Shown: piece by piece, positions 1,703-30,715 of the stretch
Position numbering within the stretch: position 1 is the stretch's first letter
Layout of the letters: each line of letters starts with the position of its first letter
UHGV virus genome: UHGV-0267581
DNA length: 30,715 nt
Reading direction: 5' to 3' (one strand)
Origin: a virus
Notes under the pieces: model-generated
What the model was told of the DNA's origin: nothing
The model's input: the letters and a program-made list of their open reading frames with translations, nothing else
Databases searched by the model: none
Translations under genes and position numbers: made by a program

Positions 1703-1740
1703 CCCCTATCGTTATAATACGCGGTAGGGGCGTTTTGTTT
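1703..1740 (+). terminator. rho-independent terminator-like hairpin (imperfect dyad around TTATAATA) plus T-tract
   Basis: CCCCTATCG ... CGGTAGGGG stem with one wobble, followed by CGTTTTGTTT. Also a candidate recombinase site because of its dyad symmetry. Confidence 0.5.
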
Positions 1741-1749
1741 GGAAATGGT

Positions 1750-3429
1750 ATGAAAACTAAACTGTATTCGTATATTCGCTTCTCGTCTATGCGTCAGAAT
1801 GATGGTTCGAGTTATGAACGACAAATCAGGATGGCTAGAGAGATTGCGGTAAAGTATGACCTTGAACTGGTAAATGATTATCAGGATCTGGGTGTATCTG
1901 CGTTTAAGGGTGCTAACTCCAAAACAGGGGCGCTATCTCGTTTCCTTGATGCAATAGGTAGATCCGTTCCTGTTGGTAGCTGGCTATTCATCGAAAACTT
2001 GGACCGTTTATCCCGTGCCGATATTGTCAGTGCGCAGGAGTTATTCCTTTCAATCATCCGTAGGGGGATAACCATTGTTACTGGCATGGATAACAAGATC
2101 TACTCGCTGGATACTGTTACCGCTAACCCGATGGACCTGATGTTCTCCATCCTTTTATTCATCCGTGGTAATGAGGAAAGCCAGACTAAGCGCAATCGTA
2201 CTAACTCAAGCGCACTGATTAAGATTAAAGCTCATCAAGAAAATCCACAAAATCCGGCTGTTGCAATCGAGGAAATTGGAAAGAATATGTGGTGGACTGA
2301 TACCACATCTGGTTATGTGCTTCCTCATCCGGTCTTCTTCCCTATTGTTCAGGAAGTTGTGGAATTACGCAGGAATGGACGGTCAACCGCCGAGATACTG
2401 GATCACCTTAACGCGACATACACACCACCACCAGCCGCAAGTCACAAGAGGCATTCAAACTGGTCACGGGCAATGATTGAAAGGTTGTTCCATACCCGCG
2501 CTTTGATTGGTATCAAGGAAATCTCTGTAGATGGCGTTAAGTATGAGTTAAAGGATTATTATCCTCGTGTGCTAGATGACGCTGAGTTTTATCACCTTAA
2601 GAAAAGCATTGGTGTTAGAGCATGTAACTTTGGAGACAAAGAAGAAGTTAAACCTATTCCCTTGCTTAGTGGTGTTGGTCTATTGAAATGTGAACATTGC
2701 GGTTCCGCTATGGTTAAGGTGAAAGGAACAAACAGACGGCCTAACCAATATCGTTATTCATGCGATGCAATGCGCTCTAGTCGTATTGAATGTGTGCATA
2801 CAAACTGGAGTTTTCGCGGCGACCAATTAGAGAAAGCTGTATTGCAATTGCTGGCTGATAAAATCTGGATTGCTGAAGATAAGGCTAATCCGGTTCCGGC
2901 TTTGAAAGTACAGATTGATGAAATATCACGCAAGATTGATAACCTGATTACCCTTTCTGCTATGACAGGAGCAACGAAGGAGCTAGCCGATCAGATTACT
3001 ACCCTCAATAGCGAGCGTGAAACACTCTACAATCAAATTAAGATGGCAGAAGAGGAAATGTATTCTGTTGACTCTCAAGGCTGGGAGAAGCTCGCAGAAT
3101 TTGATTTAGAAGATGTTTACAACGAGGATCGCATTAAGGTCCGGTTTAAGATTAAGCAAGCTCTAAAACGGATCGGGTGTAGCAGGATTGACAAGTACAA
3201 AAACTTGTTTGTACTGGAATACATCGATGGCAAGACCCAGAGAGTTGTAATAGAAAATTCAAGAGGACCGAGGAAAGGCCGGATCTTCGTTGATTTGAAG
3301 ACTATCAATGATAGGCAGATTCTGGAGAGTAACGGGCTTGTTCTGCATCCATGTTTAGACATGCTGACAGATAAGAACTGGAAACCAGAAGAAGAAATAC
3401 CAGGTCCATTACAAGAATTTGGAATTTAA
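1750..3429 (+). CDS. large serine recombinase (integrase-type; resolvase-like catalytic domain plus zinc ribbon and coiled coil)
   Basis: N-terminal YIRFSSMRQ (catalytic Ser motif) and ENLDRLSRA (resolvase LDRLxR motif); cysteine cluster CEHCG ... YRYSCDA ... ECVH typical of the zinc beta-ribbon of large serine recombinases; heptad-rich C-terminus. ATG at 1750 preferred over the in-frame TTG at 1735. Confidence 0.85.
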   Translation: MKTKLYSYIRFSSMRQNDGSSYERQIRMAREIAVKYDLELVNDYQDLGVSAFKGANSKTGALSRFLDAIGRSVPVGSWLFIENLDRLSRADIVSAQELFLSIIRRGITIVTGMDNKIYSLDTVTANPMDLMFSILLFIRGNEESQTKRNRTNSSALIKIKAHQENPQNPAVAIEEIGKNMWWTDTTSGYVLPHPVFFPIVQEVVELRRNGRSTAEILDHLNATYTPPPAASHKRHSNWSRAMIERLFHTRALIGIKEISVDGVKYELKDYYPRVLDDAEFYHLKKSIGVRACNFGDKEEVKPIPLLSGVGLLKCEHCGSAMVKVKGTNRRPNQYRYSCDAMRSSRIECVHTNWSFRGDQLEKAVLQLLADKIWIAEDKANPVPALKVQIDEISRKIDNLITLSAMTGATKELADQITTLNSERETLYNQIKMAEEEMYSVDSQGWEKLAEFDLEDVYNEDRIKVRFKIKQALKRIGCSRIDKYKNLFVLEYIDGKTQRVVIENSRGPRKGRIFVDLKTINDRQILESNGLVLHPCLDMLTDKNWKPEEEIPGPLQEFGI

Positions 3430-9748: not shown

Positions 9749-10167
9749 TATTCACCCCCGAATCTATAAACTTGTTCATAGTCAATGTCTGAAACAGGAA
9801 TGGTCATCCAGATACCATCTTCTTCAACGAGGCCATAACCGGAATAATGAGGAACTACGGAATAATAATTACGGTTTCCTAATTTGTGGGCTGTGACCAG
9901 TAAGTCGCCGTCCTGTAAATCATCAGTGACTAATTTGAAATGTTTCTTAATTGGTTGAAGGATATTTGAATACCCGCTTAATTCTTTGCAGATTTTCAAG
10001 CCTTCTTCTTTAGTTGAATATTTTTTATAAAGAGAATTATATAGGTCAGTACCAGCGAGAATATCGATGATCTTACATGCAATTAGATTGCAATCATTCT
10101 CACCTTGAACGAACTCCTGACCTATTAAAGAATTGATGTAATCGGTGATAAGCCTAGTTTTTAGCAT
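9748..10167 (-). CDS. tail tip assembly protein (gpK/gpI-position; 139 aa)
   Basis: Start set at the internal ATG with GGAGG 8 nt upstream (the longer ORF would overlap the upstream gene by 110 nt); stop overlaps the J-like start (TAATG); contains a QGENDCNL Cys motif that may be NlpC/P60-like (uncertain). Confidence 0.5.
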   Translation of the reverse strand: MLKTRLITDYINSLIGQEFVQGENDCNLIACKIIDILAGTDLYNSLYKKYSTKEEGLKICKELSGYSNILQPIKKHFKLVTDDLQDGDLLVTAHKLGNRNYYSVVPHYSGYGLVEEDGIWMTIPVSDIDYEQVYRFGGE

Positions 10168-27223: not shown

Positions 27224-27829
27224 ATGCTAATTAATCAGCAAGAAAGAGATGAATTAGAATTAGCCTTGTCTTGTTGTACCGATCATGAATATCGTTTGCC
27301 AGTTAAGCACCATCACAAGAAGACTGATTACACTACATCCGGTTTTAGTCGCGAAGAAGCGAAGCAAATTTTAATCGAGTTGTATCGCGATCATGGGTAT
27401 ACAGATATCCATAACTTCTTTAAGAAGCACCGAACATCACAGACAGAGTTTCAGCGAGTCCGTGAATGGTTTGATTTTGATATCAAGCGTTATTATCGAG
27501 TGGATGACGGTCCAATCTATCGGTTGCAGTGGAAGCCGATCAGGGAAGTGCTTAAACAGAAGAGATTGAATCATGCCATTACACGCTATCGTAACGTGGC
27601 TTTCAAGAAAGGCTATGGTGATACAAGGGAATTGTTTGTAGAACTCGCTAACGTGCGATATAGCCATTATTACAGGAATCCTAAAGAGTTCTTCGAAGTG
27701 CTGCGCAAGGTTGATATAAGTCGGGGTACATACTATTCACGGTTGAAGAAGTACGGGATTAAGGCAGAGTTTTTTATGTCAGTTGACGATGGAGAACTTT
27801 TTCCGATAAAATGTAAGTCCTCTAAATAA
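27224..27829 (+). CDS. hypothetical protein (201 aa), divergent from the terminase gene
   Basis: ORF with a G-rich SD; Arg/Lys/Tyr-rich; no motif recognised. Confidence 0.5.
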   Translation: MLINQQERDELELALSCCTDHEYRLPVKHHHKKTDYTTSGFSREEAKQILIELYRDHGYTDIHNFFKKHRTSQTEFQRVREWFDFDIKRYYRVDDGPIYRLQWKPIREVLKQKRLNHAITRYRNVAFKKGYGDTRELFVELANVRYSHYYRNPKEFFEVLRKVDISRGTYYSRLKKYGIKAEFFMSVDDGELFPIKCKSSK

Positions 27830-27857
27830 AGGTGAACATTCACTTTAATTTGGAGAA

Positions 27858-28088
27858 ATGACTATGACTACTAAAGCTACTCGCGGTCGTCCTGCCCGTT
27901 TTAATCGTGAACAACTGGCAGAGATTGTAAAAGCGTACTATCAAGCACCGAAAGGTAAAGAGAACAAAGAACGGGTATTAAATGAGCATGGCTTATCTAT
28001 AGCCCAGCTATACAAATCCCTACATAAAGTTGATTTGAAATTCTTTGTTCAGGTTGACGGTGAAATGGTAGAAGCAACAGGAAATTGA
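27858..28088 (+). CDS. small putative DNA-binding protein (76 aa)
   Basis: GGAGA SD 7 nt upstream; N-terminal TKATRGRPARF looks like a basic DNA-binding segment; followed by a strong terminator. Confidence 0.5.
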   Translation: MTMTTKATRGRPARFNREQLAEIVKAYYQAPKGKENKERVLNEHGLSIAQLYKSLHKVDLKFFVQVDGEMVEATGN

Positions 28089-29327: not shown

Positions 29328-29795
29328 TTACAGCATATCTAAGCCTTCATCGTAACCGTAGAAGCCACCGTGAGAAGAAAAAGCGATTGGTGCGTAGTCA
29401 TCATCATCTTCGTCTTCTTCATCGCGTTCTGGTGCTTTCTGAGCGGTTTCTTTGCCGTAGTTAAACATTGCTTCATCCAGTTCTTGAAGAGTAAAGAAGC
29501 TACCCAGATCAACATCACCGGAACGGACTTCGAAAGGAAGGTATTCGCTAACGATGATCGCTGGAATATTCTGGTACTTTAAGCGGCCTTCATCGGTGAA
29601 GACGTTAACAACAATGGTCGGCTTCTTATTACGGCAAAACGCATACCATGCACTAGAGAAATGAGATTCATCAGAGTTGAAAAGAATGTTGTAACCACGT
29701 TCAACAAAGATCTTCATTAACTTGTCATTGTGGAAGCTATCAGCATCAAAACCTAACAGGATGAAAGGAGTAGTGGTAGTCATTTTATGGTTCAT
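29328..29795 (-). CDS. hypothetical protein with strongly acidic C-terminal tail (155 aa)
   Basis: AGAGGA SD upstream; C-terminus ERDEEDEDDDDYAPIAF. Confidence 0.55.
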   Translation of the reverse strand: MNHKMTTTTPFILLGFDADSFHNDKLMKIFVERGYNILFNSDESHFSSAWYAFCRNKKPTIVVNVFTDEGRLKYQNIPAIIVSEYLPFEVRSGDVDLGSFFTLQELDEAMFNYGKETAQKAPERDEEDEDDDDYAPIAFSSHGGFYGYDEGLDML

Positions 29796-30037
29796 AGTGG
29801 AAATCCTCTAAAAGAAAGTGAATCAATCTAATATTATTTATAAAGAGAAAATTCTTGTTATTATGAAAAGAGTGATCTGGTAGAGTCCAAAACTGGTCTG
29901 TACTTGAAAGATGATTGGATTCAGCCGGGCTAAAGCCCCCCTTCATAGATTTGATTAAATCATCATCAAAACGAAGAAGTATCTTTAGAATATAAGAATC
30001 TTTCTTTTGAAGAAAATAATAATCAGGAAGCAATTTA

Positions 30038-30066
30038 GCAACCGAAGGTTGCAATCCCGAAGGGAT
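30038..30066 (-). other. two adjacent stem-loops that read as UUCG-loop hairpins on the minus strand
   Basis: Plus strand GCAACC-GAA-GGTTGC and ATCCC-GAA-GGGAT back to back; may lie in the 5' leader of the acidic-protein gene. Confidence 0.4.
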
Positions 30067-30410
30067 ACCAATACCTTTCTAGAAATTGATTGTTACTCAC
30101 TTCGTTCGTTTACTAGAATCAGTTAGTAACTAGTATTAAATCCCTTTCTAAGAAAATCCTTTTAAAAGTGAGTGAACGCCGTAGGCGTGAACGTGAGCGA
30201 AGCGAACTATCAATCCCTTTCGAATCCTGCTTGCAGGTCTTAGAAGGTGTTGGTGGGCGCTACGCGCACGGCTACGCCGTATTCTTTTTGCGAGATCTTT
30301 CTTGAACGTAGTGAGAGAAAGCGAGCAAAAAGGAGAACGTTAGTTCGAATTTTATATTCTATGGTCTGTGGGGTATAATACCTTTCAAGGTCATACACTT
30401 ACGTGATTGA

Positions 30411-30540
30411 AGTGTAGGGTTAGTGTAGGTGTGTAGGTTTCATAGTGTAGGTTTGAGGGTGTTATAGTGTAGGTTTACTGGCTAGTGTAGTGTAGGCCAA
30501 TCCCTTTAAAGGGTAGGTGTGTAGTGTAGGTTTTCAATCA
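30411..30540 (+). repeat. array of at least 8 same-orientation GTGTAGG(T) repeats containing the palindrome CCCTTTAAAGGG
   Basis: Repeat starts at about 30412, 30423, 30431, 30445, 30467, 30485/30491, 30517 and 30524; palindrome at 30502-30513; followed by an AT-rich tract to the window end. Confidence 0.7.
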
Positions 30541-30715
30541 AAAATTTTGACAAAAAATTCTTGTATATTATTCAACCAAAAAACCACCAAAAATAGATGT
30601 AAATTCATGATTTAAAAGAAATTTTCAAAAGATCTCCGTGCCATATAAGGTTTAAAAGGTTGATAATCATTATTTGCCATTTTCAAACAAAAATTTTGAT
30701 ACACCTTTCTCGCTT

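Follow-up and report, generated by a model that had tools for sequence, protein, structure and literature searches.

Iteron-type replication origins, among them lambda ori with its O protein, the lambdoid variants of that system and the origins of pSC101, F, P1 and R6K, combine phased repeats of one direction with AT-rich DNA, and their initiator is encoded nearby and carries an N-terminal DNA-binding domain that co-varies with the repeats. A locus of the same outline was analysed in the virus genome UHGV-0267581 (30,715 nucleotides, this whole stretch being the window), where a direct array of GTGTAGG(T) heptamers (30412–30530, + strand) is followed by an AT-rich tract and is paired with the gene of a protein here called p351. 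The locus departs from the lambda and theta systems in that the repeat core comprises 7–10 bp instead of 17–22 bp and is irregularly spaced, that the array lies upstream of the operon whereas the lambda iterons lie inside the initiator gene, that O or Rep homology, a P, DnaC or helicase partner gene and DnaA boxes are absent, and that the AT-rich tract is dispensable in some relatives. Closer in scale are the SaPI/PICI origins and the ori/crr of P4, in which arrays of 6–8 bp repeats stand beside AT-rich DNA and each Rep is specific for its own repeats. Their 'one island, one specificity' logic matches the present locus as well, but p351 is without an NTPase motif and without detectable similarity to SaPI Rep or P4 alpha, which are helicases or primase-helicases. 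From the comparison of related loci reported here, the GTGTAGG array is one of several alleles of an array/protein specificity cassette that can be swapped within a prophage family not studied before, and, judged from its context, it is read as an iteron-type replication origin with p351 as its own initiator, at a probability of roughly 45%.

The array contains seven exact copies of GTGTAGG within 119 bp, all in a single orientation (starts at 30412, 30423, 30431, 30445, 30467, 30490 and 30524), and three copies with one mismatch each (GGGTAGG at 30512, GTGTAGT at 30485 and 30519). An earlier reading made from the letters of the window (the sequence-only reading) had counted at least eight copies of GTGTAGG(T), a number that is reached only if degenerate copies are admitted, the total then being 8–10. 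Start-to-start spacings along the heptamers are 11, 8, 14, 22, 23, 22 and 12 bp; the starts 30423, 30445, 30467, 30490 and 30512 are phased at 22–23 bp, and TRF returned a period of 22 bp. Same-direction repeats phased by the helical repeat, as in iteron origins, were also found in the array types B and C described below. Elsewhere in the 30.7-kb window GTGTAGG occurs twice, both times on the − strand. Shuffled versions of the window held 2.1 copies on average and none of 100 reached nine, and the chance of at least seven copies in 119 bp, calculated from base composition, is about 2 × 10−20. In relatives whose TerL is only 58% and whose Rha is about 50% identical, positions 30411–30450 have a single variable column and the block 30130–30530 is almost invariant, the DNA on either side of it diverging. 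A comparison with close relatives had been proposed from the sequence; in these, the array is either near-invariant or replaced as a unit together with the cognate protein type. The general idea of clustered protein-binding repeats beside easily melted DNA is supported to this extent, the array being predicted to be a conserved binding-site array within an early regulatory region. Literature searches on the prophage and the motif gave nothing relevant, matches to GTGTAGG being to the pKD3/pKD4 primer site.

For the comparison, 33 related loci with a delimitable intergenic region were collected from IMG/VR and E. coli genomes, and their neighbouring genes were tabled by tblastn; two scans of species-representative genomes with TerL, once as a single protein and once as an alignment, gave no matches. 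DNA beyond the window end was taken from a near-identical prophage in strain C325 (locus L012; window coordinate = L012 coordinate + 20799), where about 385 bp of further non-coding DNA is followed by the genes of p59, a small Hin-like helix-turn-helix (HTH) protein, of p351 (L012:10597–11652, outside the window and about 0.9 kb right of the array) and of p80, a coiled-coil protein. The array stands within a 1.3-kb gap between two divergent early operons, p155-p50-Rha (leftward) and p59-p351-p80 (rightward). Its position in the relatives is between a 72-bp segment (30100–30171), which is 89–100% conserved in most type A and B loci and forms the left anchor of the swappable cassette, and the AT-rich tract or a promoter. 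At least four unrelated arrays occupy this position, built of GTGTAGG, CAGGGGCAA, CGGGGA and CTTGTACATC, respectively. The GTGTAGG array (type A) was accompanied by p351 (333–351 aa) and p80 after p59 in 15/15 loci, and 8–9 copies of CAGGGGCAA / TTCAGGGGCAA(A) (type B) by a 313-aa protein after p59, again in 15/15. Both loci with 13–18 copies of (A)CGGGGA, preceded by three TGTAGGT (type C), encode a 337-aa and a 333-aa protein, and the single type G locus (L054), with about 13 copies of CTTGTACATC and about nine of CCGGGGGA, encodes proteins of 371 and 363 aa. Arrays other than type A likewise share one orientation and have spacings of about 11–13 and 21–22 bp.

Array type was equal to the type of the 313–371-aa protein encoded about 0.9 kb to the right in 33/33 loci, with no exception, a count that does not amount to 33 independent trials as the loci are mutually related. 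A nearby protein that co-varies with the repeats, as a cognate initiator would, is thus present at each of them, its binding being predicted. Partial likeness runs in parallel on the two sides: in the two kinds of loci with CGGGGA-type repeats the second proteins are homologous to each other (E = 1e-30), and types A and C have TGTAGG-type words in common and weakly homologous first proteins (E = 5e-5). The surrounding alleles are mixed. Those of p59 (about 98%, 55% or 48% identical) occur across array types, and the alleles of p155, p74 and Rha as well as the presence of the AT-rich tract are reshuffled relative to array type. Recombination is frequent on either side of the pair and, because p59 lies between the array and the protein gene and is itself reshuffled, takes place even between the two. 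To judge from the aligned loci, the many differing allele backgrounds show repeated reassortment, and the recovery of only matched pairs despite recombination is the signature of a functional protein–DNA pair.

The same comparison bears on a packaging function, in which a small terminase would recognise the array much as cosB or pac is recognised. The sequence-only reading had listed packaging among its options, and we now regard it as very improbable. Repeat clusters near packaging sites are known, as in the R sites of lambda cosB and the hexamers of P1 pac. The TerL of this prophage belongs to the GpA type of lambda, whose members cut at cos sites, and parts of the intergenic region are GC-rich and partly symmetric. 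A Nu1-like TerS candidate and a cluster of protein-binding repeats are features in common with lambda cosB and its R sites for Nu1. Here, however, the repeats neither adjoin nor co-vary with TerS or TerL. The distance of about 3.3 kb between array and TerL gene had been given correctly, and other operons lie between. That a small-terminase gene is not adjacent holds good as well, but a TerS-like gene exists about 2.7 kb beyond the window end, 2.9 kb from the array and in a separate operon. Its protein is 100% identical in L012 (type A) and in L021 and L041, which have the entirely different type B arrays, and TerL alleles at 97% and 58% identity were found with both array types A and B, the array tracking another protein. 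Since it follows neither TerS nor TerL, a packaging site is ruled out, as far as comparison of sequences can exclude one. The TerS assignment comes from phrog_57 only (E = 6e-11): an alignment with lambda Nu1 was colinear but not significant (E = 0.32), and a PDB sequence search with TerS gave no meaningful matches. The ends of the IMG/VR contigs were also considered as packaging ends and rejected, as the contigs start at the hicB ATG and are trimmed prophage predictions.

The proteins that pair with the arrays belong to one family, with a kept N-domain core, divergent surfaces and a coiled coil. Their shared plan consists of an N-domain of about 165 aa with conserved core residues (E-Y, M-H-S-R-N-G, SFF), a long helix, an acidic linker and a short C-terminal helix. 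AlphaFold, run with a diverse alignment, placed a beta-rich N-domain of three strands, two helices and three strands at residues 10–115 (pLDDT 70–92) and the coiled coil at residues 190–246 of p351. A HMMER scan of 1.84 billion cluster representatives gave 11 matches, all of the same kind, which add the protein types D, E and F; for these three, scans of IMG/VR gave no matches. Among strains p351 varies in length from 322 to 351 aa, mostly through a C-terminal (YA)n repeat that ends in YAYAA and is expanded in C325. Most members of the family end in -AA (YAYAA, LDFAA, VRRAA, LEAA), while the ending PTLR(I/L)VA is found in p80 and in the second protein of types C and G; both endings we take to resemble ssrA-type degrons. 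Lambda O, an unstable initiator and ClpXP substrate, would be alike in this respect. The Mu repressor, in which the DNA-binding domain at the N-terminus is followed by a leucine-zipper-like middle part and by a C-terminal tail governing ClpXP degradation, has the domain logic that is proposed for p351. In type A loci only, the last codons of p80 hold two copies of AACCTACAC (the reverse complement of GTGTAGGTT) 18 bp apart (L012:11869–11893), types C and G using other codons for PTL. We tentatively consider the p351 family to be a previously unrecognised group of phage DNA-binding proteins, either initiators or master switches, with an interchangeable, sequence-reading N-domain, a coiled coil and an ssrA-like degron, each with its own swappable phased array. 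At least four such pairs, and as many as seven types of the protein, would then circulate among prophages of E. coli and Shigella through exchange of cassettes, as a compact and naturally orthogonal set of modules for protein–DNA recognition.

In the mechanism proposed, the heptamers would be iteron-like sites for p351, and array and protein would form a matched specificity cassette. The variable beta-rich N-domain would read the heptamers directly, and the coiled coil would allow bound copies of p351 to oligomerise along sites phased at 11 and 22 bp, with the conserved C-terminal tail contacting a partner. Such a complex could mark the prophage's origin of vegetative replication, and melting or priming may then take place in the AT-rich tract, in the cluster of GNA-triloop mini-hairpins on the other side of the array, or in both.

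The AT-rich tract to the right of the array (30531–30715, extending about 12 bp beyond the window end) is the lowest-GC 185 bp of the window (24.9% against 42.2% for the whole), in agreement with the sequence-only reading. It is 83–92% conserved beside arrays of types A, B, C and G, and in loci that are without it a consensus promoter follows directly after the array. It is a candidate unwinding element, a candidate regulatory spacer, or both. Two landmarks that had been singled out here fared less well. The perfect palindrome CCCTTTAAAGGG is present at 30502–30513 and occurs once in the window, but 10 of 100 shuffles also yielded one such match, and conservation is lacking: other members of the family have AAAGTGTAGG or TCATGTGTAGG here, and two relatives with a near-invariant array read CCCTTTAAAGTG and CCCTTTCATGTG. 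The left half belongs to a second repeat family, AATCCCTTTC (motif AATCCCTTTA), and abuts a right half that equals the GTGTAGG heptamer with one T-to-G change (GGGTAGG), a mutated heptamer because of the readings CCCTTTAAAGTG and CCCTTTCATGTG in relatives. As a functional dyad CCCTTTAAAGGG was rejected, and on these comparisons it is incidental. The hexamer TTGACA is likewise present at 30547–30552, but it was rejected as a −35 box; a promoter scan found no usable −10 box 16–18 bp downstream of it, and relatives read TTGATA, the right arm of a conserved palindrome.

This palindrome, the operator-like TCAAAA-A-TTTTGA (30538–30550) that takes in the TTGACA and is read as CTATCAAATATTTTGATAG in relatives, has a second copy, CAAAA-A-TTTTG (30688–30698), whose centre lies 149 bp from that of the first and which is kept in all loci that have the AT-rich tract; the segments 30531–30561 and 30680–30710 are 81% identical. 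The arrangement suggests operators for the small Hin-like HTH proteins p59 or p74, and the palindromes may resemble hix-type half-sites (TTATCAAAAA). Just beyond the window, at L012:9928–9956 (window-equivalent 30727–30755), the perfect palindrome TTGACAtgTGTCAA encloses the −35 box of a near-consensus promoter, TTGACA-17-TATACT, and a hairpin with a T-run follows about 140 bp downstream, before p59 (L012 ~10093–10125, window-equivalent ~30892–30924), which suggests that an operator controls this promoter and that its leader is terminated or attenuated. The proteins p74 (76-aa ORF, 27858–28088) and p59 (L012:10301–10480) are paralogous, with an N-terminal GRP-x-KF-x-RE that resembles the C-terminal HTH of Hin and resolvases, and a 201-aa protein upstream of p74 (region 27224–28088) has similar segments.

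The left flank of the array is a hairpin-rich block (30172–30411) that is type-specific and, as the relatives show, swapped together with the array; it holds the mini-hairpin motif GCGAAGC (30195–30201) and, on the + strand, a terminator-like hairpin with a T-run. Hairpins with c(GNA)g triloops and stems of at least 4 bp are concentrated in this part of the locus, five of the six in the window lying within 30038–30280 on both strands. Two adjacent c(GAA)g hairpins are found at 30038–30066 (+), namely GCAACC-GAA-GGTTGC (30038–30052) and ATCCC-GAA-GGGAT (30054–30066), and the hairpin scan located further GNA-triloop hairpins at 30176–30188 (+), 30257–30267 (−) and 30268–30280 (−). Type B relatives have an equivalent cluster built of different sequences. 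The oriV of RSF1010 is alike in its iterons, its AT-rich segment and compact GNA-loop hairpins on both strands, ssiA and ssiB being located on opposite ones. In a review, mini-hairpins of the c(GNA)g class are described at the origin of phage G4 and in ssiA of RSF1010 oriV (PMC13037366), the ssiA mini-hairpin core being CCGAAGG (PMC13037366), a word that occurs verbatim at 30042–30048. The prophage differs from RSF1010 in having no homologues of RepA, RepB' or RepC, and its hairpins may be mere transcription terminators; those of 30038–30280 could be DNA mini-hairpins, that is priming signals, or compact terminators.

It was also considered whether the repeats act in RNA, as a transcript sponging a protein, or are a non-functional remnant of slippage, which is the least probable of the explanations weighed here. 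Stable hairpins and terminator-like elements abound in the intergenic region, and a promoter-like TTTATA-17-TATAAT stands just upstream of the array (30351–30379), but its TATAAT is not conserved, relatives reading GAAATG or CAAATG, and no Rfam match was obtained. Slippage would not readily leave the irregular spacing and the differing spacers, and the strict pairing with the type of the protein N-domain points to recognition of DNA by that protein. Rfam gave no matches for the whole window, nor were tRNA or tmRNA genes found.

Several other features of the left flank were recorded. The second repeat family, AAT(C/A)CC(C/T)TT(T/C)N(A)AG, has copies at 30070, 30138, 30154, 30211, 30377 and 30498 (+ strand), and similar words occur in type B and type C relatives, hence independently of array type. 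A possible small transcript of about 165 nt (30090–30290, +) would start from a promoter-like TTGTTA-18-TAGAAT (30090–30119) and end at the terminator-like hairpin ACGGCTACGCCGT with a T-run (30268–30290, +), its 5' part being common to types A and B (89–100% identical) and its body type-specific. A DNA similarity search of phages gave as its sole match 85 bp of intergenic DNA of RB49-like phages; this segment (29942–30026) is 76–85% identical in 58 RB49-like T4-type phages (Krischvirus) and reads on the − strand as a promoter-like TTGCTA-17-TATTTT followed by a GGGC-TTTA-GCCC stem-loop, a layout that matches the PeSL promoter/stem-loop cassettes of RB49 and phi1 (PMC2839356).

Taken for the locus as a whole, an origin is favoured because phased one-direction repeats occur with a nearby cognate protein that has a modular DNA-reading domain, because one flank is the most AT-rich DNA of the window and is conserved beside four array types, because the other flank holds five of the six c(GNA)g hairpins including CCGAAGG, together with GCGAAGC, and because the prophage offers no other candidate for an origin or initiator. 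In the whole 35-kb prophage, from attL near 210 to the attR in hicB, no recognisable replication gene and no other origin candidate was found, and protein family searches with the early proteins gave no match to known replication, repressor or partition families. The coexistence of prophages of the same type is a further reason. Two type B blocks are present in 4 of 33 type B genomes, and BS74R-D carries two distinct prophages (portal 52%, Rha 55% and p74 56% identical) with identical 313-aa (type B) and p59 proteins and with intergenic regions and arrays that are 97.5% identical, for which gene conversion is possible; accordingly, the types are not seen to act like immunity groups that shut one another out.

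A number of findings weigh against an origin. To begin with, the 33 concordant loci share ancestry, as said above. The p351 family gave no match in Pfam, PHROGs, NCBIfam or PDB sequences, nothing similar to the predicted fold was found in PDB or BFVD, and p351 resembles none of the Rep, lambda O and DnaA families and has no NTPase motif. No helicase, loader or primase gene is present in the prophage, and a search for DnaA boxes showed no enrichment. Fourteen of the 33 loci (L013, L033 and 12 of type B) keep the array but are without the AT-rich tract, and where the tract is present its conserved operator-like palindromes may mean that it serves regulation and not unwinding. Unusually for an origin, the loci of types C and G combine two arrays with two proteins of the array type. 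Finally, in some type B loci without AT-rich tract and without p351 (L022, L018, L041) three copies of GTGTAGG stand in or near a TTGACA-17-TATAAT promoter, including one within its spacer (for example L022 intergenic 880–945, window orientation), which hints at a transcriptional role for such sites; these copies may be remnants of cassette exchange or sites of another protein.

Several of these points support a different function, in which the array would be an operator or enhancer, the p351-type proteins would act on the divergent early operons as switch regulators, whether by repression, activation or autoregulation, and the array types would be regulatory or immunity types. This is the main rival of the origin reading, though overall we consider it rather unlikely. 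The array lies between the divergent operons, no recognisable CI-like repressor was found in the prophage, and in relatives without the AT-rich tract the array ends about 60 bp upstream of the TTGACA-17-TATACT/TATAAT promoter of the protein's operon. The GTGTAGG copy in the promoter spacer of some type B loci, the palindromes of the tract, the absence of helicase, loader and DnaA boxes, the lack of initiator likeness in p351 and the doubled arrays and proteins of types C and G all count in its favour, as do the ssrA-like C-termini, which suggest unstable switch proteins. Immunity regions classically come in several specificity types among similar temperate phages, as in the lambdoid and P2-like phages and in cluster A mycobacteriophages, and direct repeats phased at one or two helical turns also serve the P2 C repressor, Cox and Apl, so that the arrays of these proteins and of the Mu repressor, placed in a switch region between divergent promoters, are alike in layout. 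They differ from the present locus in that sequence or fold similarity to p351 is lacking, that in the window type no recognisable promoter overlaps the array, and that same-type prophages coexist. The nearest good promoter is about 200 bp to the right, promoter scans gave no convincing leftward promoter near the array, and with 8–18 sites over 120–250 bp the arrays are much larger than typical operators. Coexistence would be unexpected for a sole immunity determinant, although gene conversion could blur this, and an unstable protein would be an odd choice for the maintenance of lysogeny. Of the options named by the sequence-only reading, origin and early regulation both survive, with the origin favoured, and the two are not mutually exclusive, as initiators commonly autoregulate.

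A partition site, the remaining option, is unsupported. More broadly, the array might be a centromere-like partition or anchoring site, or a sink that buffers p351 by titration in the way of P1 incA, without taking a direct part in initiation, all of which we regard as improbable. Plasmid centromeres of types Ib and II typically consist of short direct-repeat arrays to which small proteins bind and oligomerise, the array-type proteins have a coiled coil, and the two inverted motif copies at the 3' end of p80, confined to type A, could allow looping or pairing. Against partition stands that no gene for a ParA-, ParM- or TubZ-type NTPase was found in the 35-kb prophage and that the element, being integrated into the chromosome through a serine integrase, has no need for it.

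The window comprises the left 30.5 kb of a prophage of 35 kb that has hicB of E. coli as its insertion site, with the 3' part of hicB at 97–210 as attL and attR in hicB at the other end. A large serine integrase gene lies at 1735–3429, and the lysis, tail, head, portal and GpA-type TerL genes follow on the − strand up to 27136. The 155-aa early gene p155 (29328–29795, −), the first of the leftward operon, forms the left bound of the intergenic region. Beyond the window, L012 continues after p80 with a convergent operon that holds the TerS-like gene and an LprI-like gene, and then attR. Insertion sites within the family differ (hicB in the window, and codB for cytosine permease, ycdX and a site next to kdsA in L013, L014 and L002), and each insertion truncates its target gene, consistent with serine integrases of differing specificity. 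The closest TerL in 50,697 phage records was 44% identical (E. coli phage DCP80, 141 kb), so that no close cultured phage was found. In DCP80 (L001, 1–1290) a long non-coding, hairpin-rich stretch upstream of TerL has many UUCG- and GNA-type loops and repeated GCTTCGC.

For the biology of these phages, the pairing of array and protein pinpoints the one protein–DNA interaction that would be kept by selection while its surroundings recombine. The locus is also a reminder that a repeat array beside AT-rich DNA near a terminase gene need not be a packaging site. Should the N-domain prove to have a truly new fold, its four to seven natural specificities would reveal how a single scaffold reads very different words of 7–10 bp, and they might be usable as orthogonal origin or regulator parts. 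In a prophage family without recognisable replication or repressor genes, the pairing would provide an experimental handle on the start of replication or on the decision between lysis and lysogeny.

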